Notes under the pieces: generated by a model | The model's database searches: none | What the model saw: the letters and a program-made list of their open reading frames with translations, nothing else | Told to the model about the DNA's origin: nothing | NCBI RefSeq assembly: GCF_003334785.1 | Contig: NZ_QOWV01000012.1 | Direction: 5' to 3' (one strand) | Source: Escherichia coli | GTDB taxonomy: Bacteria > Pseudomonadota > Gammaproteobacteria > Enterobacterales > Enterobacteriaceae | Length of the DNA stretch: 64,000 bases | Shown here: positions 1 to 12,496 of the stretch, one piece after another | How the letters are laid out: every line of letters starts with the position of its first letter | Position numbering within the stretch: the first letter of the stretch is position 1 | Translations under genes and position numbers: made by a program

Positions 1-1
1 C

Positions 2-154
2 AGCAAGCGTTACACTCAGCGCATTGAGCGACATAATCTGAATCTGAGACAACATCTGGCAAGGCTGGGACGGAAGTTACTGTCGTTCTCAAAATCGGTG
101 GAGTTGCATGACAAGGTCATCGGGCATTATCTGAACATAAAACACTATCAGTAA
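2..154 (+). CDS. 3' end of an unidentified ORF running off the left window edge (partial)
   Basis: Open frame from the window edge to TAA at 152-154; no family recognised by eye. Confidence 0.2.
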
Positions 155-878
155 GTTGGAGTCATTACCTCCTCCCGAACTCAAAGCTATCATACAGATA
201 ATTACTGGTTAACCCTATATAGGGCATTTTAAAGTGTTGTGATCTTACCCAGCAATAGTGGACACGCGGCTAAGTGAGTAAACTCTCAGTCAGAGGTGAT
301 TCACAAGACAAAACAGTTTCAACCAGTAAAAAAACGTAAACACCATTCGCATGAATTTCGTAGTTAAGATCTGAAGCTTGCAGAATGCATCGGTGTTACT
401 GCCGGAGTTCGTGAACTTAGTCTGCATGAATCACCACAGCTTTACATCTGTCGCAGTAAACAGCAAAATCAGCAAACTTACTTAATTATATCGAGTGCGA
501 TTACAATCGCTGGCGATGGTACAGTTGGTGTGGCGGTCTCAGTCCGGAACAATTTGAAAATCAGAATCTCACTTAAAACGGCATCCATTTTACAAAAGAT
601 GGCCGTCTGTGTATTTGTAATGAATACCTTCTACATGTTTAGAGTGCATAATCCACGACAAGGCGATATCCTAAAAATTAGCTAGCAGGCAACTTTGATG
701 GCATAGATAATGTTTTTAGTAAAAAAGAGTTGACTGAATATAATACAGCCTCTTCCTACATAAGAAGGAATGTGCTCACAAAAAAAACCATTAGTCTGCT
801 TCCTGTTCTTACAATAATCAGTATTATGTATTTTATTTATATAGCAAAATATGCTTGTTACACCTGTCATAATTAGGC

Positions 879-1172
879 ATGGTAAAATTATTGACTGAAC
901 CCTGGGGGAGAAAGATGCACAGTGATTATTATAATATGGTTTTTGGTGAAAAATTGGCCAATATTTTATATGAAGCTAACTCTCAATTTTTTTACGAGAG
1001 AAATGTCATAGAAGAGGCAGTCAACGCTTTATTCTGTGAGCGTGAAATAATAAACAACAAGAACATAATAAAGAAGCTGATGTTCTTTTTGTCAGATGTT
1101 AATCACACCAAGAAAGATGTTGTTCAGAGCGCACTTAATATTATCATTGACATTACATCAGGTGATATTTGA
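879..1172 (+). CDS. hypothetical protein (97 aa) in AT-rich DNA
   Basis: ORF in track; strongly AT-rich context typical of horizontally acquired DNA; no recognisable motif. Confidence 0.3.
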   Translation: MVKLLTEPWGRKMHSDYYNMVFGEKLANILYEANSQFFYERNVIEEAVNALFCEREIINNKNIIKKLMFFLSDVNHTKKDVVQSALNIIIDITSGDI

Positions 1173-1505
1173 GATTTTACATAAAAGATAATCTCTCAAG
1201 GAGTCTTATCTGAAAACGAAATATATAGTCCCTCTCGTTTTGTAATATCGATTGGCTTTGTTGAATCGGTTACGTACCCCGGAGCCGGTCATATTTTCAG
1301 GTAATACACACGCTTTCAGACATTTCGGCTTTCGTCATTTTGGTATCATGGGCATAGCTTCTGCTACCTGACCATCATAATCACGCAGCTTCAGTGAAGC
1401 AGTGACCACCTGTTTAACCCGGTGTATCGTTATGATCTTATCCAGCAATTGAACCGCCCCGGGTTTCCTGGAGAGTGTTTTATCTGTGAACTCAGGCTGC
1501 CAGAT

Positions 1506-1612
1506 CATCGTTTCCGATGGAAGCATAATAAGCTTTTTCTGCTTCTGCCGGTGGAATATGGCCCTGCCTTTCCAGCAATCGTCGATTGTTATACCAGTCC
1601 ACCCACGTGAGT
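1506..1612 (-). mobile_element. IS3-family transposase 3'-terminal remnant
   Basis: Minus-strand translation reads ...DELTTLTWVDWYNNRRLLERQGHIPPAEAEKAYYAS, a typical IS3-family OrfB C-terminus; only ~35 codons present, so a decayed fragment. Confidence 0.5.
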
Positions 1613-3195
1613 GTGGTCAGCTCATCATACTGACACGTGCATTACCCCTACCGCGATAATGCAACCGTACAATATAGGGCGTTTCCTAAACGCAGCCCTC
1701 ATCACTCCAATCCAACAAGACACAGCATTTTTGATCACGAAGAAAGACAAATAATTTCCGTAAATGTTTCCGTTGTTACAAATAACAACAGTGTTTTATA
1801 TTTCTTTGGCCTCAGGCCCGCGCATGTTGCCATTCGATGTCATTTTCCTGACTCGTTTCTTCTTTATGGTGTAGTGTGATCTTCACTTTATGGATGCTAA
1901 CAATATGAAAAGAAAAATTATTCCCGTGCTAATCGGTTGTACGCTCTCTTTCTCTGCCCTGGCGGCACAACCTACGGCTGAGCGCTATGTCGTCAGTTTT
2001 CCAGAAGGCACGCACGTGAACTATGCCGGCGCATTTGCCAGTGCATTCCCGAACGGCCTTCCGGTTGGGATAGGTTCTGGCCTGCTGTTCACCGGTAATC
2101 CGTGATCGAATCGAGCGGAATACGCAGCCCCGACAAATACGAGCCCCCTTCAGCAGATACAGGCCGGTAATACCTGAAAATCAGCCTATTACCGCCCACG
2201 CCTCCGGCACCATTCCCTTTTGATTTCGAATTCTTTGTTGTCGCTATACCGCTTAATGTTCCCGGTCCTCCGGTGCAGATAACACCGGAGTCATCGTAGC
2301 GCTGCTTCAATATTCAGGTGACATATTTCCAGACGGAAGCCGGCGCGCGATCGTAAAGTTTGTTCATTGTCAGTTCTGCCAGCCGGTTGTCAACGGCAGA
2401 GTTAAAGGCTTCCAGCTCCGCAAGGGTAAGTTTATAACGCGTGTGGGAATTCACTTTTCCCGCGTCTCCTGACGTATTACGGGCTGCCACTTACCAGGTG
2501 TCCCGCAATACAGCCTTAGTGTTCCGTTATCGGGGATCCGGACGCACCGCAACAACCGGGGAAGTATTTCTGGTTTAGAGCAGTGTCAAGAGGGATTTCT
2601 CAGCCCCTCACTCACCGGCTCAGTCTCAGGGCAGGAGCATTAATACGCTCAGTTCATGTCTTATACAGGAATGGGCACAGGGGGAGCTGGCGTGTCACTG
2701 CTGATTTTACGCATCAGCGTTCATGTATCTGCACTCTGATACATGAACGATTCACAGCGCTCTGTTACCGGAGAGATTTACTCTCTTAGCTTACTCTGGC
2801 AAATCCTTTACGTTACTCTCTGATGACTTCTTATATTTATAATACCAATCAGACAGCCTTATCCCATCGGTGATATCAGTCTCCTCCTCGCCAGGAACGG
2901 GCTGACTCACTGTAACCACCTCCGAAAACAACTCTGCAATTATCAGAACGCTAGTTTTCCCCTTGTCTCACGAAAGTCCTCCCTCCTTTATCGCGCGTGC
3001 GTGCGGAAGCATCTTTTCGCAACAACCACCCGGGATTCCGCTACGGCTCTGCCATCGCAATCCCCCCGTTTATCTCCGGACAGCCACATTCCCGATTATT
3101 TTTTACGTTTCTCCCCGGTTGTTATGCCAGTGAAGGTGGCGCGCTGTTTTCATGACCACACCGGCTGGTTTAACAACATCCGGAGGAACATTCTC

Positions 3196-3393
3196 ATGGC
3201 TACAGCCGCAGCCGGCAGTAACATGACGTTCTCACCGTCACAGAATGGTACGTCACTGGACCTGCAGGCCGGACTGGAAGCCCGTGTCCGGGAAAATATC
3301 ACCCTGGGCGTTCAGGCAGGTTATGTCCACAGCGTCAGCGGCAGCAGCGCTGAAGGCTATAACGGTCAGGCCACGCTGAATGTGACCTTCTGA
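3196..3393 (+). pseudogene. flu: antigen 43 autotransporter, C-terminal beta-barrel fragment only
   Basis: Translation ...GSNMTFSPSQNGTSLDLQAGLEARVRENITLGVQAGYVHSVSGSSAEGYNGQATLNVTF matches the extreme C-terminus of Ag43; upstream sequence in the same frame is unrelated, so the gene is truncated. Confidence 0.6.
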
Positions 3394-3507
3394 CAGAACC
3401 ATCGCCTCTCTGTGGTCCCGGTCATCATGATCGGGACCCGGACCGGCGCAACGGATATTCAACGCCACATTCGCTGGCATTAACAATAACATGATATTCA
3501 TCACGGA

Positions 3508-5049
3508 GTGACTATGTTACAGATAGTCGGCGCGCTGATCCTGCTGATCGCAGGATTTGCCATTCTTCGCCTTTTGTTCAGAGCATTAATCAGCACGGCT
3601 TCTGCGCTGGCAGGGCTCATATTGCTGTGTCTGTTCGGCCCGGCCTTACTGGCTGGCTATATCACCGAACGCATAACCCGGTTGTTCCATATTCGCTGGC
3701 TGGCAGGCGTATTTCTGACGATTGCCGGAATGATCATCAGCTTCATGTGGGGACTTGATGGTAAACATATCGCGCTGGAGGCTCACACCTTTGACTCTGT
3801 GAAATTTATTCTGACCACCGCTCTCGCCGGTGGTCTGCTGGCTGTTCCCCTGCAGATCAAAAACATTCAGCAGAACGGGATCACACCAGAAGATATCAGC
3901 AAGGAAATTAACGGGTATTACTGCTGTTTTTATACTGCCTTTTTCCTTATGGCGTGTTCTGCATGCGCACCATTGATCGCGTTACAGTACGATATTTCAC
4001 CGTCACTGATGTGGTGGGGCGGGTTGTTGTACTGGCTGGCTGCATTAGTGACGCTGCTATGGGCGGCCAGCCAAATCCAGGCGCTGAAAAAACTGACCTG
4101 TGCCATCAGCCAGACACTGGAAGAACAACCGGTGCTCAACAGTAAATCGTGGCTGACCAGTTTGCAAAACGATTACAGCCTTCCTGACTCACTGACGGAG
4201 CGCATCTGGCTGACGCTCATTTCTCAACGGATTTCCCGGGGAGAGCTGAGGGAATTTGAACTGGCAGACGGAAACTGGTTACTGAACAATGCCTGGTATG
4301 AAAGAAACATGGCAGGGTTTAACGAACAGTTGAAAGAGAACCTGTCATTCACACCTGATGAACTGAAAACGCTCTTCCGGAACCGCCTGAATTTATCACC
4401 GGAAGCGAATGACGATTTTCTCGATCGTTGCCTGGACGGCGGTGACTGGTATCCCTTTTCAGAAGGTCGCCGTTTTGTATCATTCCATCACGTGGATGAG
4501 CTTCGTGTCTGTGCCTCCTGCGGGCTGACAGAAGTACATCATGCCCCGGAAAATCATAAGCCGGATCCGGAATGGTACTGCTCCTCTCTTTGTCGCGAAA
4601 CAGAAACACTGTGTCAGGAAATTTATGAACGCCCTTACAACAGCTTTATTTCCGATGCAACGGCGAATGGTCTGATTCTCATGAAACTGCCGGAAACCTG
4701 GAGTACAAATGAGAAAATGTTTGCTTCCGGAGGGCAGGGACATGGGTTTGCCGCTGAACGGGGAAACCATATTGTCGACAGAGTCCGTCTGAAAAACGCA
4801 CGGATCCTCGGTGATAATAATGCCAGAAATGGAGCAGACAGACTGGTCAGCGGAACAGAAATCCAGACGAAATATTGTTCAACTGCAGCCCGTAGCGTCG
4901 GTGCGGCATTCGACGGACAAAACGGACAGTATCGTTACATGGGAAATAATGGCCCCATGCAACTGGAAGTCCCCCGTGATCAGTATGCCGGCGCTGTTGA
5001 AACCATGAGGAATAAGATCCGCGAAGGTAAAGTAACCGCGCTGAAATGA
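3508..5049 (+). CDS. yeeR: CP4-44-type inner membrane protein YeeR homologue (513 aa)
   Basis: Hydrophobic N-terminal half; position after a flu remnant and before yeeS/yeeT/cbeA/cbtA mirrors the CP4-44 gene order. Confidence 0.6.
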   Translation: MTMLQIVGALILLIAGFAILRLLFRALISTASALAGLILLCLFGPALLAGYITERITRLFHIRWLAGVFLTIAGMIISFMWGLDGKHIALEAHTFDSVKFILTTALAGGLLAVPLQIKNIQQNGITPEDISKEINGYYCCFYTAFFLMACSACAPLIALQYDISPSLMWWGGLLYWLAALVTLLWAASQIQALKKLTCAISQTLEEQPVLNSKSWLTSLQNDYSLPDSLTERIWLTLISQRISRGELREFELADGNWLLNNAWYERNMAGFNEQLKENLSFTPDELKTLFRNRLNLSPEANDDFLDRCLDGGDWYPFSEGRRFVSFHHVDELRVCASCGLTEVHHAPENHKPDPEWYCSSLCRETETLCQEIYERPYNSFISDATANGLILMKLPETWSTNEKMFASGGQGHGFAAERGNHIVDRVRLKNARILGDNNARNGADRLVSGTEIQTKYCSTAARSVGAAFDGQNGQYRYMGNNGPMQLEVPRDQYAGAVETMRNKIREGKVTALK

Positions 5050-5219
5050 GTCCGGAAGCTGCCGGCATTGCTGCCTGTCTGATGACGTACAGTCATCATG
5101 CCTGTCGTACGGAGTGTTATGCCATGACGGTCCATTATTACCGGCTGCGGGATTACGCCCTGCAGCATCCGGAATGCAGCGCCATTATGCGCATCATCGA
5201 CTGAATGGAGAGAAGTACA

Positions 5220-5696
5220 ATGCAACAGCTTTCCTTTCTGCCCGGAGAGATGACGCCCGGCGAGCGCAGCCTCATTCAACGGGCCCTGAAAACCCTGGAC
5301 CGCCATCTTCATGAACCCGGCGTGGCCTTCACCTCCACCCGTGCGGCACGAGAATGGCTGATTCTGAACATGGCGGGACTGGAGCGTGAAGAGTTCCGGG
5401 TGCTGTATCTGAACAACCAGAATCAGCTGATTGCCGGTGAAACCCTCTTCACCGGCACCATCAACCGCACGGAAGTCCATCCCCGTGAAGTGATTAAACG
5501 CGCCCTGTATCACAATGCCGCTGCTGTGGTGCTGGCACACAATCACCCGTCCGGTGAAGTCACACCCAGCAAGGCAGACCGCCTTATCACGGAACGTCTG
5601 GTACAGGCACTGGGCCTGGTGGATATCCGGGTGCCGGACCATCTGATAGTCGGTGGCAGCCAGGTTTTCTCCTTTGCCGAACATGGTCTGCTTTAA
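5220..5696 (+). CDS. yeeS: RadC-like JAB-domain protein (YeeS/YfjY/YkfG family)
   Basis: MQQLSFLPGEMTPGERSLIQRAL... with the HNHPSGEVTPS JAB/MPN metal motif; start taken at the internal Met matching family length. Confidence 0.7.
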   Translation: MQQLSFLPGEMTPGERSLIQRALKTLDRHLHEPGVAFTSTRAAREWLILNMAGLEREEFRVLYLNNQNQLIAGETLFTGTINRTEVHPREVIKRALYHNAAAVVLAHNHPSGEVTPSKADRLITERLVQALGLVDIRVPDHLIVGGSQVFSFAEHGLL

Positions 5697-5758
5697 CCCG
5701 TCACAACCACATCACACCTGTTTTCACTTTTATCTTCTGTCTTCAGAGGTATCCCACT

Positions 5759-5980
5759 ATGAAAATCATCACCCGTGGCGAAGCCATGCGTATTCACCGT
5801 CAGCATCCGGCATCCCGTCTTTTTCCGTTCTGTACCGGCAAATACCGCTGGCACGGCAGTGCTGAAGCGTATACCGGTCGTGAAGTGCAGGATATTCCCG
5901 GTGTGCTGGCCGTGTTTGCAGAACGCCGTAAGGACAGTTTTGGTCCGTATGTCCGGCTGATGAGCGTCACCCTGAACTGA
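5759..5980 (+). CDS. yeeT: DUF987 protein YeeT homologue (73 aa)
   Basis: 73-aa ORF MKIITRGEAMRIHRQHPASRLFPFCTGKYRWHG... in the conserved position between radC-like gene and cbeA. Confidence 0.65.
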   Translation: MKIITRGEAMRIHRQHPASRLFPFCTGKYRWHGSAEAYTGREVQDIPGVLAVFAERRKDSFGPYVRLMSVTLN

Positions 5981-6142
5981 TGTTCCGTCACCCGGAAAAC
6001 GAGTACGACTGGCTGAGCTCAGACGCCGCTGTGGATGAGGTCCTGCTCATCAACGAATACACCTTTACCGAAGCCGGTCTGCGCGCCGGCTGACCCGTCA
6101 TCGTTAAACTATCATTCACCGATTTTCTGTGAGGATTTTATC

Positions 6143-6511
6143 GTGTCAGACACACTTTCCGGGACAACGCATCCCGATGACAATGACGACCATCCCTGGT
6201 GGGGACTACCCTGCACAGTGACGCCCTGTTTCGGCGCCCGTCTGGTGCAGGAGGGTAACCGCCTGCATTACCTTGCCGACCGCGCCGGTATCAGAGGCCT
6301 GTTCAGCGATGCAGATGCGTACCACCTGGACCAGGCCTTTCCGCTGCTGATGAAACAACTGGAACTCATGCTCACCAGCGGTGAACTGAATCCCCGCCAT
6401 CAGCATACCGTCACGCTGTATGCAAAAGGTCTGACCTGCAAAGCTGACACTCTCGGTAGCGGTGGTTACGTTTATCTGGCTGTTTATCCGACGCCCGAAA
6501 CGAAAAAGTAA
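6143..6511 (+). CDS. cbeA: type IV antitoxin CbeA (YeeU family)
   Basis: GTG start; [52 protein letters not shown]... matches the YeeU/CbeA family; immediately upstream of cbtA. Confidence 0.75.
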
Positions 6512-6600
6512 ACCACCGGAATAACCTTCTGCTCCGGCCTGGTGCTTTCACCACGCCACTTTTCCATTTTTCATCTCTGCATATCAGGAAAACCTTCAGT

Positions 6601-6975
6601 ATGAAAACATTACCCGATACACACGTACGGGAGGCATCGAGCTGCCCGTCTCCCGTCACCATCTGGCAGACTCTGCTCTCCCGACTACTGGGCCAGCATT
6701 ACGGCCTTACACTGAATGACACACCGTTCGCCGATGAACGTGTGATTGAGCAGCATATTGAAGCTGGCATTTCACTGTGTGATGCGGTGAATTTTCTCGT
6801 GGAAAAATACGCGCTGGTGCGTACCGACCAGCCGGGATTCAGCACTTGTCCCCGCTCTCAGTTAATAAACAGTATTGATATCCTCCGGGCTCGCAGGGCG
6901 ACCGGCCTGATGACCCGCGACAATTACAGAACGGTAAATAACATTACCCTGGGTAAGCATCCGGAGAAACGATGA
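6601..6975 (+). CDS. cbtA: toxin CbtA (YeeV family, cytoskeleton-inhibiting)
   Basis: 124-aa [79 protein letters not shown]...; conserved antitoxin-toxin order. Confidence 0.75.
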
Positions 6976-7460
6976 AACTTTCCCTGATGCTGGAAGCCGA
7001 CAGAATTAATGTGCAGGCACTGAACATGGGGCGAATTGTCGTTGACGTCGATGGTGTTAATCTCACTGAACTGATTAACAAGGTCGCTGAAAACGGTTAT
7101 TCACTCCGCGTGGTGGAGGAATCCGACCAACAGTCAACCTGCACACTACCACCGTTTGCAACCCTTGCCGGCATACGCTGCAGTACCGCACATATCACGG
7201 AAAAGGATAACGCCTGGCTGTACTCGCTGTCGCATCAGACCAGTGACGTTGGTGAATCAGAATGGATTCATTTCACAGGTAGCGGATATCTGTTACGTAC
7301 CGATGCGTGGTCATATCCGGTTCTGCGGCTTAAACGCCTGGGGCTGTCAAAAACGTTCCGTCGTCTGGTTATCACACTTACCCGACGTTATGGCGTCAGT
7401 CTCATTCATCTGGATGCCAGCGCTGAATGCCTGCCGGGTTTACCCACTTTCAACTGGTAA
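6972..7460 (+). CDS. yeeW: CP4-like prophage protein (YeeW-like), function unknown
   Basis: ATGA start/stop overlap with cbtA as in the CP4-44 cbtA-yeeW arrangement; 162 aa. Confidence 0.5.
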
Positions 7461-7471
7461 CCAGGAACAAC

Positions 7472-7669
7472 ATGAAATCATTAACCACGGAAACCGCACT
7501 GGATATTCTGATTGCGTGGCTGCAGGACAATATCGACTGCGAATCGGGAATTATCTTTGACAACAATGAGGATAAAACGGATTCAGCAGCACTGTTGCCC
7601 TGTATCGAACAGGCCAGAGAGGATATCCGTACCCTGCGCCAACTGCAGCTTCAGCACCAGAACCGGTGA
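7472..7669 (+). CDS. small hypothetical prophage protein (65 aa)
   Basis: ORF following yeeW-like gene; internal Met chosen; no motif recognised. Confidence 0.3.
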   Translation: MKSLTTETALDILIAWLQDNIDCESGIIFDNNEDKTDSAALLPCIEQAREDIRTLRQLQLQHQNR

Positions 7670-8386
7670 GTCTTACTCACCAGACTTCATTCCACTGACG
7701 CCAGCCTGAACAGGGCTGGCATTTTCATTTATCTGCAAAAAGGAATATCGATTATGTCTGATATCACAGCCTACCGTCCGGAAGTGGTCAACGAGAATAC
7801 GGACGTTATCTGCTCAACCAGCATCCGCCGCATTCTGGCTGTACGAAAGAGTTCACTGCTGCAAATCGACACAATTATCCGGCATCAAGTGAGCGATATC
7901 AGTTAACAGATATAGATGGAGAAGATGCTTTTATCCGGATTGGTTCTATCGCGATGGTGCGAGTACTACTTGATGCAATGAAGCCTGTCGAGGAAGATGA
8001 CGAGTAACAGAGCTCGGTATCTCAATCAGGAGCTGATTGTCCTGGTTCGATGCCGAAAACCAGTGATTTTTCGTGTTGGTATCTGTGTTGGTATAAGATG
8101 ATATTGTTTATTATTAACAATTTTAAATCATGAGGTTAAGTCACATGTTTGAGTCCGGCCTTCGCACCTTCGCACCTTCGCACCATCGGAACATCAATAG
8201 ACATCAACGGACGTTTTTTTATGACTGAAATCCGCGCCACACAAGGCTTTTCGCTATTTTTCGCTCAACCTAAGTCAACCTACATCAACTTACTGATGTG
8301 GATACAGCTACAGCTGCGGCTATACCCCGATTCGATAATGTTTGTACCCACACAAAACCCTTGAAAGGCTACAAGGCTGAAATTGT

Positions 8387-8605
8387 CTAAACCATAGAGA
8401 TGATTTTTATGATCCAGTCTTTCTCTTGTTGAGATAGTTCCAGTTTGCTCACTCGTGTTAAGAAGGTATTGATCACCTGAACATCCGAATTGGTGAGCCT
8501 ATTTAATAGAGCGGGTGGTATACCTTTACTAACAATCGCTTTGCGGTGACTTTCGTAGTTTTTATTACTCATTGTTGATCCTAAAAAATCATTGTATGGC
8601 GGCAT
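8387..8605 (-). CDS. hypothetical protein (72 aa); possibly C-terminal part of a frameshifted gene
   Basis: ORF in track directly downstream of the 8629..8871 ORF on the same strand, different frame. Confidence 0.3.
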   Translation of the reverse strand: MPPYNDFLGSTMSNKNYESHRKAIVSKGIPPALLNRLTNSDVQVINTFLTRVSKLELSQQEKDWIIKIISMV

Positions 8606-8628
8606 TGATCGTTTCCAGCAACCTTTAC

Positions 8629-8871
8629 TTACTCACTTCGAACTGCATCCTCGTAGACTGTTCCACTACAATAATCGAAAAGGCGCGGATGTCCATTCAG
8701 GTATCCCGCTAATACGTATAGCAATAACAATGGCTTATGCGGCGCGCGCTGTTCACCCTTGTGCCAGATTTTTATATTGGCAATTGCCTGCTGTAGCGAT
8801 TTACTGGAAGCTATTGATATCCCTAGCAGTGAAATAATTGCGATCATGCTCGCAAATTTTCTGCTGTTCAA
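8629..8871 (-). CDS. hypothetical protein (80 aa) with RAPHKPLLLLYVLAGYLNGHPRLFDY motif; possibly N-terminal part of a frameshifted gene
   Basis: ORF in track, divergent from the HNH gene; followed 24 bp downstream by a second ORF in another frame. Confidence 0.3.
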   Translation of the reverse strand: MNSRKFASMIAIISLLGISIASSKSLQQAIANIKIWHKGEQRAPHKPLLLLYVLAGYLNGHPRLFDYCSGTVYEDAVRSE

Positions 8872-8950
8872 GCCTGCAAGTGAAGATATATTACCTTGAT
8901 CTCATTTGTTTTTTTGCTGCCTGTTCTGAGAACGTATAAGGACATTCTCC

Positions 8951-9601
8951 ATGAATAAACTCCCTGATCATCTTCCGCGGCGGTATATCATCGAAGCTAT
9001 CCATTTATGGGATGCGGGAGAAACTCATCAGTTCCAGCCTGCGCGGTTGTATGAGATTGAATATCATGGCCGACGTTACCCCTCGAAGGCGATTGCTGGC
9101 ATCGCAGCGACATTGATGACGGGGACGCAATTTACCCCTGCGGATTTCACCGGCGGAATAAAATCTAAATGTGTCAAGCTACTCATAGAGCAGGGATTTC
9201 ATATTCATCTGGATAAAGCCGCTGCGGCTCCCATAGCCGACGTTCTGTTCCCGGATGAGTTGCCGTCGCAGGAGACATACCTTGAAGGTGCGGCGATAAA
9301 GGTGACAGTAAACCGCTATGAACGCGATAAAAAGGCCCGAGATAAAGCGGTCGAACATCATGGATGCCAGTGCAACGTATGCGGTGTTGATCTGGTGAAG
9401 ATCTATGGTGATATCGCTGAAGGCTTTATCCATGTGCATCACCTGGTGCCGCTGTCAGCCATTAAAGAGGATTACCAGCTGGATCCAGTTAATGATTTGC
9501 TGCCTGTGTACCCTAATTGCCATGCGATGTTGCACCGACGCAAACCACCGTTTACGCCGGAGCAGTTAAAAGCGCTGATGGATGCGAATAAATCAAATTA
9601 A
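8951..9601 (+). CDS. HNH endonuclease with an extra N-terminal domain (type IV restriction-like)
   Basis: C-terminal HHGCQCNVCG...FIHVHHLVPLS...NDLLPVYPNCHAMLHRR is a canonical HNH (C-x2-C, HH, N, C-x2-H) motif; about 120 aa of unrelated N-terminal sequence; AAGGA Shine-Dalgarno upstream of ATG. Confidence 0.7.
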   Translation: MNKLPDHLPRRYIIEAIHLWDAGETHQFQPARLYEIEYHGRRYPSKAIAGIAATLMTGTQFTPADFTGGIKSKCVKLLIEQGFHIHLDKAAAAPIADVLFPDELPSQETYLEGAAIKVTVNRYERDKKARDKAVEHHGCQCNVCGVDLVKIYGDIAEGFIHVHHLVPLSAIKEDYQLDPVNDLLPVYPNCHAMLHRRKPPFTPEQLKALMDANKSN

Positions 9602-9608
9602 TGAACGC

Positions 9609-10589
9609 TCACCTTTCGCGCCAAAACTGCAAAATTGCTTCTACAAACTTGTCAGAAATAATCCCCCGACGGGCTGCCGTGCTGAAATGACTGCTTCGCA
9701 GTGCCGTCGTCCAGTTCTCCGGTGACCGGTACGCTGAACCGTAATATCCCGTGCTTAAATCGTCCGGGTCTTCATCAGGCGCGTTCGTCAGTCCTCTTTC
9801 ACCTTGTTGCTGGAAGTCGACGAAAATAATATTGGCTAAAACATTATTTTGATAATTGCCATAAATAACTTCATACGCATGAGGGAAATTTTCTTTCCAG
9901 TACCAGGTGGTATCGCCGCAAAACCACGGTGCGTCAGTAATATTATTAAGCTGAGAATGGTATTGTTTTAGATCCCTACGAAAGGCTTCAACCATATGAT
10001 TAAAGTGTTGAGGGTGTGACGCGTAGTCACTGGTCATTAAGTCAAATTCGCCTTGCATCCAGCATACGCCGAGGAATTTGTTATGCGGATTTTTTGCCAG
10101 TGCGGCTCGCGTTCTGCTGACTAAATCCTGGTATAGCGGAGTATCCGTTCCCCAACGACAAGCATCATGGCTGGCTCCGTGCCGTTCTGAATATGTCCCT
10201 TCGCTGCCCGCGGTAAAAGCCGATCCGCCACGGCAACACGGAACGATGAGAACCCCTGCATTATCAGGAATAAAGGGCAGTAATTTCCGTGCTATATGCA
10301 GTGCCTGGCCAACGGTGCCGTACTGTGTTTGATGATTCGTTGCCAGAGGATGGTGATAACCCTGCATATCCTGAACATCGTGTGGGCAGTGAGTCAGTGG
10401 AATCATGTCGTTAAAGTGACATGGCGGGCCTCCGGGATGCGTATGCGCAAATCTCGCTAATTGTTTGATTCTGGGATGAGGCGCATCTTCCCTGTCCGGT
10501 AATGGCAGTCCTTCGCCATACGCCATGGCATTAGACTGACCAGCAATGGTAAGAATATAGTAATAATCGGGCGATATTATTGCGTTCAT
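9609..10589 (-). CDS. nanS: 9-O-acetyl-N-acetylneuraminate esterase NanS
   Basis: MNAIISPDYYYILTIAGQSNAMAYGEG... matches NanS (YjhS); start at the internal Met giving 326 aa; synteny with nanM and nanC. Confidence 0.85.
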   Translation of the reverse strand: MNAIISPDYYYILTIAGQSNAMAYGEGLPLPDREDAPHPRIKQLARFAHTHPGGPPCHFNDMIPLTHCPHDVQDMQGYHHPLATNHQTQYGTVGQALHIARKLLPFIPDNAGVLIVPCCRGGSAFTAGSEGTYSERHGASHDACRWGTDTPLYQDLVSRTRAALAKNPHNKFLGVCWMQGEFDLMTSDYASHPQHFNHMVEAFRRDLKQYHSQLNNITDAPWFCGDTTWYWKENFPHAYEVIYGNYQNNVLANIIFVDFQQQGERGLTNAPDEDPDDLSTGYYGSAYRSPENWTTALRSSHFSTAARRGIISDKFVEAILQFWRER

Positions 10590-10653
10590 ATAAATTTCGC
10601 GTAATTGAAATGACAAATTGATAGCAGGGCCCCTTTACCGGGGCCCTGAAGCG

Positions 10654-11760
10654 TTAGTTTTGTACTGTAACTTTATTATCCTTCACAGAGATCAAAACTG
10701 AATCCGTCACCGCTTTGCCGCCTGCAGTTTCACCGCCAATAATCAATAGACTATTATTCCAGGGCAATGATACTCCGTAGGCCCGACCTTGCGATAATTC
10801 ACCCGATTTATCCCATTTCCCGTTATGCCAAAGATGAATATCAGTGCTATATGATTTTTTCAGGCCTTCATGCGCATAGTTCTTACCGTTCTGGTAATTT
10901 TCTCGTGAACCTTTGAATCCGGCCCCTCCGGCAAATATAAGAGAATCATTGCTTATCCCCGCAAAACCGCCAGCTACGCCATCTGGTGATGAGACGGGAG
11001 CAAGCTTATTCCATTTTAAATTATTACCGGTGAAATCAAGTTCAAATACGGCATCCGTTCGCAATCCTGGTTTGGCTTCGCCATTAATAAGCCAGGTTTT
11101 ATCACCTTTATTCACAACCGCCGCACCAGCCGTTCCGTACCAGGGCGATTCGCCAGCGTAACTCCATTGCTGTGTTGAGGGATCAAAAGACAACAGAAAC
11201 TTATTGAAAAAATAATCTTCTGCTTTTTTGTCAAAATAGTGAGCGTTGATTTTATCTATAGCGGTTGAATCTTTTCCAGCCTCGTTGAGATCTTCAAAAT
11301 AGCCATTGAAGATATTCTGGTTAACACCGCCAGTAACATAAGCCTTGCCGTTGTGTACAAAAGTTACATGACCCGCCATGCCCATCGGTGCGTGCGACAT
11401 CAATTTAACCCAACTATTGGTTTTGGGGTTGTATTTGTGTACGTCATTAAATACCTGAGTCAAGCCCTCGCTGTTTTTGCCAATGCCGCCAAACACATAC
11501 AGATTGCCATCAATAAATGCCGAGGTTGCTTGATCTCTTGGTCCACCAGGGAATGCAGCTAACGCTTTCCATTTTTTATCTTTGGCCTGTGTATCCAGCT
11601 TGTACCATGCCGTACCTGCGCTACCTAAACCAATGTAGACAGTGTCGTTATCAATTGCTCCGGTACCACTTTTAAATGGCACAGGAGTTTCCGGTAATAC
11701 AGACGCGTTTGCGGCAAATGAAGCCATCATGATAGCAAGCGCCGTTATTGTTTTATTCAT
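10654..11760 (-). CDS. nanM: N-acetylneuraminate mutarotase NanM (kelch repeats)
   Basis: MNKTITALAIMMASFAANASVLPETPVPFKSGTG... signal peptide plus kelch repeats; 368 aa from the internal Met. Confidence 0.85.
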   Translation of the reverse strand: MNKTITALAIMMASFAANASVLPETPVPFKSGTGAIDNDTVYIGLGSAGTAWYKLDTQAKDKKWKALAAFPGGPRDQATSAFIDGNLYVFGGIGKNSEGLTQVFNDVHKYNPKTNSWVKLMSHAPMGMAGHVTFVHNGKAYVTGGVNQNIFNGYFEDLNEAGKDSTAIDKINAHYFDKKAEDYFFNKFLLSFDPSTQQWSYAGESPWYGTAGAAVVNKGDKTWLINGEAKPGLRTDAVFELDFTGNNLKWNKLAPVSSPDGVAGGFAGISNDSLIFAGGAGFKGSRENYQNGKNYAHEGLKKSYSTDIHLWHNGKWDKSGELSQGRAYGVSLPWNNSLLIIGGETAGGKAVTDSVLISVKDNKVTVQN

Positions 11761-11779
11761 TGTGACTGTCTCCTGTCTA

Positions 11780-12496
11780 CTACAGTTTAAATGACACACC
11801 AATGCGATAACTGTTTTCCGATAAATTATCTCTGCCGTTGTAAACACCCTGACGGTCAAGGTAGTCATATTCTATGTATGGCGTAATATCCGGCGTCATA
11901 TGGTATTGTAGAACAAATGCATTTTCCGTCGCCCATTTCTTATGGTTTGCATAGCGATAATCGTTCTGTTTGCTGTATAGCGTCGTTTGCCATGCGAAGG
12001 TGAAATCACTATTAATATGGTAAGTGACATATCCATCCCAACGATGAACGTTATCACGAGACATATCACCGGATAAGTCTTGTTGTCGGTAAGCTTTCCA
12101 GTCGTAACGATAGCGAATGCCAAAATTAAGATCTTTTGTCGCGTCCCAGGACAGTTTTACGTAGGGTCCGTAGCGTGTGCCGTTGCTGCTAAAATGCGTT
12201 AACATTCCCGGGCGCACCGTCCATTGATCATCAAGTTTAATCGCGTAATTAACATCAACCTGAACATCATTGAGTGCGGCATTTTCCTTTTTATTATCAT
12301 GAATGGTATTCCAGGTATTACTTTCCATACTTGCCCACCATCCATTTTGCCATCCCTCACTGACTTTGAGTCGAGTCTCATAGGCGTGGCTTCCACTACG
12401 ATATCCACCACGTACGTCCAGTGTCGCAGCTTGAGAAATTAATGGTGACGAAAAGCACAGTAATAATACGCCAGAAAGTATTTTAGCCTTTTTCAT
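11780..12496 (-). CDS. nanC: N-acetylneuraminic acid outer-membrane channel NanC (KdgM family)
   Basis: MKKAKILSGVLLLCFSSPLISQA... signal peptide, beta-barrel-like sequence ending ...YRIGVSFKL; 238 aa. Confidence 0.85.
   Translation of the reverse strand: MKKAKILSGVLLLCFSSPLISQAATLDVRGGYRSGSHAYETRLKVSEGWQNGWWASMESNTWNTIHDNKKENAALNDVQVDVNYAIKLDDQWTVRPGMLTHFSSNGTRYGPYVKLSWDATKDLNFGIRYRYDWKAYRQQDLSGDMSRDNVHRWDGYVTYHINSDFTFAWQTTLYSKQNDYRYANHKKWATENAFVLQYHMTPDITPYIEYDYLDRQGVYNGRDNLSENSYRIGVSFKL

Follow-up and report, generated by a model that had tools for sequence, protein, structure and literature searches.

Positions 170-8187 of a 64,000-nucleotide (nt) stretch of Escherichia coli DNA (contig NZ_QOWV01000012.1; the whole stretch is called the window below) are very probably the distal third of a composite genomic island of ~29 kb at the leuX tRNA gene, which is the best overall explanation of what is found there. 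The alignments support the view that the module in this third is a decayed CP4/P4-like part of the leuX island, which carries an intact cbeA-cbtA pair of the CbtA/CbeA toxin-antitoxin family and in which the functional antigen 43 (Ag43) adhesin is gone. The anatomy of the module and the family assignment of module and pair are nearly certain and, like the origin, integrity and conservation of the genes, are matters of observation. Window 1-12000 is identical (100%) to positions 1478377-1490376 of the chromosome of strain 98-3133 (E. coli O157:H16; NZ_CP051001.1), and the gene content was taken from the RefSeq annotation of that chromosome together with a six-frame list of open reading frames (ORFs). 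At least 80% of this 12 kb lies in one place in 27 of 5,426 complete E. coli genomes, and the hosts listed for genomes with the island variant include humans, chickens, dog, crow and food. Base composition is unremarkable (35-56% GC). The object is not a novelty: it is an ordinary, previously sequenced and annotated deletion derivative of a known island type, and all its features are of known kinds.

A doubly deleted module at leuX

The features of the module, with the strand in brackets, are as follows (aa, amino acids).

3193-3204 (+): deletion junction J1, where the start of an alpA-like helix-turn-helix (HTH) regulator is joined to agn43 at about codon 977
3196-3393 (+): chimeric 65-codon ORF, Met-Ala-Thr of the regulator followed in frame by the last 62 residues of the Ag43 beta-barrel
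3514-5049 (+): yeeR, truncated form, 511 aa; 99.8% identical to K-12 YeeR over 507 aa
5032-5034 (+): deletion junction J2, with GTA microhomology, where yeeR is joined to an antirestriction-gene tail
5034-5204 (+): last 56 codons of an ArdB/KlcA-type antirestriction gene; 84% identical to residues 97-152 of K-12 LfgA (YfjX)
5220-5696 (+): RadC-like JAB gene of the yeeS type, full length, 158 aa; TIGR00608 radc, E 1e-43, above cut-off
5759-5980 (+): yeeT (DUF987), 73 aa; 97.3% identical to K-12 YeeT
5980-6093 (+): relic of a 214-aa gene that stands before yeeU in other islands, reduced to its final ~33 codons; C-terminus of WP_000094916.1, strain EcPF5
6143-6511 (+): cbeA/yeeU-type antitoxin, 122 aa; GTG start as in K-12, with GAGGA 7 nt upstream; 93.4% identical to K-12 CbeA
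6601-6975 (+): cbtA/yeeV-type toxin, 124 aa, 89 nt 3' of the antitoxin gene; 87.9% identical to K-12 CbtA
6972-7460 (+): yeeW (DUF5983), full length, 162 aa, overlapping the cbtA stop codon; K-12 retains 64 codons
7472-7669 (+): DUF957 gene, 65 aa (RefSeq annotation)
7754-8007 (+): first 50 codons of a DUF4942 gene and HTH regulator fragments, a decay common to O26 and UTI89
8146-8187 (+): attR, where the island ends on the right; it repeats the leuX 3' end in degenerate form and carries the unit TTCGCACC in triplicate

The right border was established by comparison with leuX of the source strain, which was read directly. The attR sequence, TTTGAGTCCGGCCTTCGCACCTTCGCACCTTCGCACCA, is the leuX 3' end minus one base and with its 8-nt unit triplicated, and for that reason it was detected by short-word search alone, through an exact 14-nt match of 8151-8164 to leuX positions 66-79. 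A search of the window with the 25-nt leuX 3' end, allowing up to 3 mismatches, gave no match, and no tRNA gene was found in the window. In the source genome, leuX lies at NZ_CP051001.1 1457230-1457314; it and an integrase gene stand 29 kb upstream, before the fec operon. The island thus has a tRNA gene at one end and a direct repeat of that gene's 3' end at the other, with the 14-nt exact core. At the same point UTI89 has TTCGAGTCCGGCCTTCGCACCA, which agrees with the leuX end at 22 of 23 nt. Since the 8-nt unit is present three times in the window and O26 and once in UTI89, a small tandem expansion has taken place in the attachment-site scar.

Other strains place the border at the same position. 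Homology with the UTI89 island ends at 8168, and homology with the P4-like element of strain MDK6L1 starts at 8154. The latter is an unrelated P4-like satellite at leuX (psu, ogr/delta and a TOPRIM/DUF927 primase). Because it ends at the identical attR point, unrelated elements can be said to use the leuX site. Given attR and these shared endpoints, the island extends from leuX to ~8187, and 8188-9605, including an HNH endonuclease gene, is flank. A preliminary description of this DNA had rightly placed the region in the leuX-associated island. It had also run the island on to 9601 and counted the HNH gene as a member; that gene lies outside attR and is common to strains with unrelated leuX elements, and both points have to be given up.

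The origin of the module could be read from the leuX island of E. coli O26:H11 strain 11368. Window 2297-3203 aligns to it at 99.9% identity (L006 2507-3413), 3223-3679 at 97.8%, 3695-5038 at 99.7% and 5032-12000 at 99.96%; O26 has an IS600 copy between the counterparts of 3223-3679 and 3695-5038. The window is without two stretches of the O26 island, and the corresponding junctions were read base by base. J1, found in ~25-26 complete genomes, shows an imperfect 9-bp microhomology, CATGG(C/G)TAC, in a three-way comparison of the window, the alpA side of O26 and agn43 of RM10809-3; the loss, taken as the distance between the matching points on the O26 reference island, is ~10.6 kb. J2, found in 26 genomes, corresponds to a loss of 3.1 kb relative to O26, comprising the C-terminal half of yeeR, irmA, the DUF905 and DUF932 genes and the 5' two-thirds of the antirestriction gene. 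The undeleted yeeR of O26 is much longer, with a partial ORF of 794 codons annotated by RefSeq downstream of the IS600 insertion.

What J1 has left of agn43 does not amount to an adhesin gene. The ORF at 3196-3393 matches the Ag43 profile NF033177 at positions 884-948 of 948 only (E 1e-38) and scores 133 where the cut-off is 1200. Signal peptide and passenger domain are both absent and the beta-barrel is incomplete, so that the product is not an Ag43/Cah adhesin. The preliminary description had likewise seen no adhesin here. It took the remnant for the last ~65 codons of flu/Ag43, and the 65-codon ORF is indeed present, but just 62 of its codons derive from Ag43. The Ag43 tail (3223-3393) is 99.4% identical to agn43 of RM10809-3 (O22:H8) and 95.3% to the K-12/O26 allele, and from ~3199 to 3280 the window matches RM10809-3 agn43 base for base. 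We considered 3204-3222 as filler DNA at J1 and rejected this, as it is an exact match to that other agn43 allele.

CP4-type islands share a conserved distal module made up of GTPase, Ag43, yeeR, DUF932, antirestriction, radC, DUF987, toxin-antitoxin, DUF5983, DUF957 and DUF4942 genes. In the window the attR-proximal half of this module is present, with its order kept. The GTPase, DUF932, irmA and DUF905 genes have been lost by deletion, and of the Ag43, antirestriction and DUF4942 genes only fragments are left. The CP4-44 order given in the preliminary description (yeeR, radC-like yeeS, yeeT, cbeA, cbtA, yeeW) was recovered in full at 3514-7460. Its term "strain-specific" was too strong: the identical architecture occurs in 26-27 complete genomes, and O26:H11 11368 has identical toxin and antitoxin proteins. 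Nor is the module a unique variant, being a double-deletion derivative of a sequenced island type. Between yeeT and cbeA, a 37-codon ORF (5980-6093), whose ATG overlaps the yeeT stop codon, was examined as a possible new coupled gene and discarded, since it is the 3' end of the 214-aa gene listed above; this relic is missing from K-12 and UTI89, whose alignments skip 5981-6114/6118.

The history of the module can be read from these junctions. It is a P4-like ("CP4") integrative module of the type that is intact at leuX in O26:H11 11368. In the window it stands joined behind the fec operon at a copy of IS1F and has been shortened by two illegitimate, microhomology-mediated deletions. The first took the regulator, the YfjI-like and GTPase genes and ~94% of agn43, leaving a 65-codon fusion unable to make adhesin; the second fused yeeR to the antirestriction-gene tail. 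The survivors are the co-oriented, attR-proximal genes yeeR', radC-like yeeS, yeeT, cbeA, cbtA, yeeW and DUF957, leading up to a terminator-like hairpin, which is found at 7700-7720, after the DUF957 gene.

The cbeA-cbtA pair

Judged by sequence, cbeA-cbtA belongs to the type IV CbtA/CbeA family and is intact. The preliminary description had inferred a potentially active pair, and both genes are whole: frameshifts and stops were looked for in cbtA and cbeA and none was found. Over residues 1-121 the antitoxin aligns with the solved structure of YeeU, 2H28 (E 3.7e-76), and the toxin is 59% identical to YkfI and 65% to YpjF. Among 5.8 billion protein clusters, 2,293 relatives of the toxin were found, and PF06755 is present in all 120 of those listed. 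Phe65, the only residue with a demonstrated need in FtsZ binding, is kept in the window toxin and is invariant in the 119 relatives, among these 120 cluster representatives, that have a residue there; the substitution F65S abolishes FtsZ binding in CbtA, YkfI and YpjF (Heller et al., PMC5624674). The spacer of 89 nt matches the 88 nt of K-12 cbeA-cbtA (PMC5371832). Pairwise ratios of nonsynonymous to synonymous substitution (dN/dS, Nei-Gojobori) among the window, K-12, UTI89 and B1W1 alleles are 0.14-0.31 for the toxin and 0.10-0.37 for the antitoxin, which indicates purifying selection on both predicted coding sequences. DNA of the pair family is found in 4,933 of the 5,426 genomes, at a median of three places per genome, and this allele at >=99% identity in 200 records. 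The pair sits 1.2 kb from attR, and such pairs are known to lie near prophage attachment sites (Wen et al., PMC5371832).

For the toxicity, target binding, neutralisation and expression of this cbtA/cbeA allele we can only infer, and we lean towards the view that the pair is active. By homology, the toxin would use a surface with Phe65 in it to bind FtsZ at the H6/H7 loop. It would probably bind MreB as well, on the flat face, and so block both division and elongation. The antitoxin would counteract it without toxin contact, by binding and bundling FtsZ and MreB filaments. In K-12 the three antitoxins cross-neutralise the three homologous toxins, and the operon is not autoregulated (PMC5371832). 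The most plausible role of the pair would be that of a selfish retention module beside the attachment site.

Several points weigh against this account of an active pair in a P4-type island. The gene directly after leuX encodes a "site-specific integrase" of 636 aa, whereas P4-type integrases typically have ~400 aa. Immediately 5' of cbeA, a consensus scan of the + strand showed nothing resembling a sigma-70 promoter, and the number of promoter-like sites in the region does not exceed chance (12 found, 8.3 +/- 2.5 expected). In the scan for promoters and terminators, the plausible terminator at 7700-7720 was the one exception to this chance level. The sequence 5' of cbeA differs from that of K-12 in having the 138-bp relic, and the first deletion removed the driver of agn43, so that transcription of the downstream block may be altered. 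The toxin has Cys15, and in K-12 CbtA, its closest relative, Cys15 in that backbone abolished MreB binding. Finally, a retention role is putative for type IV pairs altogether.

Some of these points bear on a rather unlikely alternative, in which cbeA-cbtA would be an intact-looking, transcriptionally silent relic, undriven since the deletions and doing nothing in the strain. Besides the lack of an outstanding promoter-like site, the island shows visible decay (four junctions and at least eight gene fragments), and with a median of three such loci per E. coli genome any single one would be dispensable. Low toxin expression has been invoked to account for the deletability of the antitoxin (Wen et al., PMC5371832). 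However, the dN/dS values of 0.1-0.4 between alleles speak for past selection on the coding sequences, Shine-Dalgarno-like sequences precede both start codons, and the co-oriented block from 5032 to attR is undisrupted and 99.96% identical to O26. In addition, J1 would bring the promoter region of the alpA-like gene to a position ahead of all the co-oriented genes, from where read-through could reach the pair. Among RNA features, Rfam models at E <= 1 had a sole, chance-level match in 1-12000, to an IRES model (15.6 bits against a gathering score of 191), and known small RNAs are absent. The RNA gene isrC, which stands upstream of flu in K-12, belongs to the part that was deleted.

The reading of an active pair acting on both targets also has to accommodate residue 15. 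K-12 CbtA has Arg15, and R15C in that protein abolishes MreB binding, giving filaments in place of lemon-shaped cells; YkfI and YpjF block elongation despite Cys15 (PMC5624674). Among the 120 relatives of the window toxin, 68 have Cys and 27 have Arg. Cys15 was considered as a sign of a damaged toxin and this was rejected, Cys being the commonest state. Because of this, and because the Cys15 toxins YkfI and YpjF inhibit elongation, Arg15 is a trait of the K-12 allele and does not define the family. The toxin is in effect a K-12 CbtA backbone with a natural R15C. It could still be argued that the other N-terminal substitutions (residues 6-11, 20, 24 and 31) do not compensate, and that the toxin would act on FtsZ only; we consider this quite improbable. 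If it were true, the CbtA-like alleles with Cys15 that are common in pathogenic E. coli would inhibit division through FtsZ only, and the dual targeting of K-12 would be the exception. Whether Cys15 CbtA-like toxins still act on MreB is a point of some interest.

Toxin-antitoxin systems on mobile elements often act against phage (cf. the review PMC12548467). The pair could accordingly be imagined to serve mainly in anti-phage defence, by abortive infection through cytoskeleton arrest, and not in island retention; defence-type genes are its neighbours (the antirestriction remnant, a McrA-like HNH gene and a remnant of a phosphorothioated-DNA restriction enzyme). We regard this as highly improbable. 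Neither toxin nor antitoxin matched any PADLOC model, no published defence phenotype for CbtA/CbeA was found in the literature searched, and the phenotypes reported concern oxidative stress, biofilm formation and antibiotic tolerance (PMC5371832). PADLOC models likewise gave no match for YeeR, YeeS, YeeW or the DUF957 protein, and NCBIfam has no models for most of the module.

The value of these observations is mainly one of bookkeeping. They show how a leuX island decays, with joining mediated by insertion sequences (IS) and microhomology deletions stripping cargo, here the Ag43 adhesin. The attR-adjacent block with the toxin-antitoxin pair remains intact and conserved, which fits the view that such pairs may aid the persistence of island remnants. 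For strain typing, the variant marks a lineage without the leuX-island copy of Ag43.

The left block and the flank to nanS

The remaining features lie to the left of the module and between attR and the first core gene.

1-169 (+): right end of IS1F, the last K-12-shared sequence before divergence; 100% identical to K-12 IS1F (L003 9072-9240), with the fec operon upstream of the window
170-2097 (no strand): block of IS debris and cargo (RefSeq annotation)
478-576 (strand not given): IS3 fragment (RefSeq annotation)
891-1172 (+): YmgB/AriR-family gene, 93 aa (RefSeq annotation)
1297-1427 (-): IS5 fragment (RefSeq annotation)
1450-1623 (-): IS3/IS1203 fragment, 93-98% identical to IS3-family/IS1203 transposase genes on plasmids; 1492-1623 in RefSeq
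1905-2096 (+): 5' 64 codons of a phytase-like esterase gene (RefSeq annotation)
2314-2490 (-): short Hha/YmoA-family gene, 58 aa; NF008191 Hha, E 2.5e-18, profile positions 27-71 of 72
8665-8814 (-): stub of 50 N-terminal codons from the gene of a restriction endonuclease that binds phosphorothioated DNA; outside the island; NF045808, E 1.7e-16, profile positions 2-45 of 284
8951-9601 (+): McrA-like HNH endonuclease gene, intact, 216 aa; outside the island
9609-10589 (-): nanS, with which the core genes begin on the right of the island, intact, 326 aa; 318 residues identical to K-12 NanS, without gaps

Other E. coli have the block at 170-2097 in one piece, and in them the esterase gene runs past the point, ~2097, at which it is broken in the window. 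The IS3-type transposase tail that the preliminary description had placed at ~1506-1612 is present in this block, and the small ORFs and HNH gene that it saw beside nanS are in place as well. Features that escaped it are the YmgB/AriR-family gene, the Hha-like gene, the antirestriction remnant, the DUF957 gene and the DUF4942/HTH fragments.

In the flank, residues 24-86 of the HNH protein resemble residues 29-92 of the ScoMcrA structure 5zmm (E 1e-3), no match to another part of ScoMcrA being detected, and for residues 123-198 the similarity is to E. coli McrA (structure 6ghc, E 0.02). The HNH (beta-beta-alpha-metal) motif is present together with its Cys and His ligands, with C-Q-C-N-V-C, HVHH and PNCH aligning with 6ghc residues 199-269 (Pfam HNH, E 0.006). 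Of the 1,054 relatives of the protein, which measure ~210 aa, 120 were listed; PF26345 occurs in almost every one of these and PF01844 in the majority. The name 5-methylcytosine-specific restriction enzyme A is given to them by several sources. PADLOC models of type IV restriction enzymes match weakly (E 1e-4).

The interval 8188-9605 carries two diverging restriction-like genes, of which different strains retain different ones. In the window, O26 and MDK6L1 the HNH gene is intact and the phosphorothioated-DNA enzyme gene is a stub. UTI89 (L007 14429-15505) has the reverse: the phosphorothioated-DNA enzyme is intact and the HNH gene is down to its final 35 codons. In K-12 both genes are stubs, and window 8980-9605 is missing. 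K-12 YthB (MNKLPAHLSRQNCKIASTNLSEIIPRRAAVLK; L003 26598-26696) looks like a deletion chimera of window 8951-8979 and 9601-9690, made up of the first five codons of the HNH gene and a small ORF that lies 3' of the HNH gene in the window (MNAHLSRQ...). Between attR and the restriction stub, an AT-rich stretch (42% GC) holds an unannotated 72-codon ORF (8387-8605, -) with no NCBIfam match. RefSeq labels nanS as a partial pseudogene in 98-3133, O26 11368, UTI89 and MDK6L1; the label is probably an annotation artefact, because the window nanS ORF is full length.

Comparison with known systems

At the same integration site, KpLE2 of K-12 (leuX to yjhR) likewise has the fec operon and IS1F, and it has the remnants of the restriction pair by nanS. 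After IS1F it continues with 17 kb of other genes (yjhU, yjhFGHI, sgc genes, yjhP, yjhQ, topAI and yjhR), where the window has an 8.5-kb CP4-like module; yjhP, yjhQ, topAI and yjhR adjoin nanS there, as the preliminary description had noted. No attR was found in the K-12 KpLE2 stretch examined.

That description had also called for alignment with CP4-44, CP4-6, CP4-57 and other leuX islands. The alignments bear out the CP4-44 gene order, while DNA identity to CP4-6 and CP4-57 is only 67-76%. YkfI/YafW (CP4-6) and YpjF/YfjZ (CP4-57) belong to the same family as the window pair and stand in the same order (antirestriction, radC-like, DUF987, antitoxin, toxin) by an attachment site. YkfI and YpjF share Cys15 with the window toxin (PMC5624674). 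Identity of the window pair to these pairs is 59-65% for the toxin and 62-67% for the antitoxin. Their spacers are 20 nt, against 89 nt in the window, and their proteins are shorter (PMC5371832).

CP4-44 of K-12 aligns with window 3223-5034 (the flu 3' end and yeeR) at 99.3%, with 5244-5980 (yeeS-yeeT) at 97.2% and with 6119-7120 (cbeA-cbtA-yeeW') at 89.1%. The two share protein lengths of 122 and 124 aa, gene order, the GTG start of the antitoxin, a spacer of 88-89 nt and F65, with yeeR-yeeS-yeeT upstream and yeeW downstream. The window toxin differs from K-12 CbtA by 15 substitutions, mostly in residues 6-31 and including R15C. CP4-44 lies beside cobU, whereas the window module is at leuX beside fim. 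CP4-44 has lost the antirestriction tail, full-length yeeS and yeeW, the DUF957 gene and attR, which the window retains, without flu. It lacks window 5035-5243 (209 bp, holding 56 antirestriction codons and the first 10 codons of yeeS) and 138 bp between yeeT and cbeA. The RadC-like protein of the window is 99.3% identical to K-12 YeeS, which is without those first 10 residues, and 78% to LfgB/YfjY.

The two modules also share the truncation point of yeeR: the window gene is cut (nt 5034, ...GAAGGTAAAGTA) at the same nucleotide as in CP4-44 (L002 12300), and downstream of the cut stands the antirestriction tail in the window and the yeeS start in K-12. Nested deletions or a hot spot could each account for the shared cut. 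It is hardly credible, and on sequence comparison largely refuted, that a displaced K-12-type CP4-44 copy recombined into the leuX island in place of an O26-type island decaying there: the shared cut, the common gene order and the flu'-yeeR identity (99.8-100% inside yeeR) would agree with it, but yeeR is as close to O26 (99.7-100%), the Ag43 tail is of the RM10809-3 and not the K-12 type, CP4-44 is missing the 209 bp, the 138-bp relic, full yeeW and DUF957, and the 89% identity of cbeA-cbtA to CP4-44 compares with 99.96% to O26, continuing to attR and nanS.

An O26-type island that decayed in place agrees with the remaining comparison. The leuX island of O26:H11 11368 (NC_013361.1, ~5.56-5.585 Mb) agrees with the window in its attR, with TTCGCACC in triplicate, and in the flank as far as nanS, and the Hha-like, JAB, DUF987, YeeU, CbtA, DUF5983, DUF957 and HNH proteins have the same accessions in both. 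Unlike the window, the O26 island has an intact agn43 (of another allele), the YfjI-like and GTPase genes, irmA, DUF905, DUF932 and a full antirestriction gene, as well as IS66 copies and an IS600 inside yeeR. The window differs in turn by its two deletions and its other left part (IS1F/fec and the ymgB-like gene).

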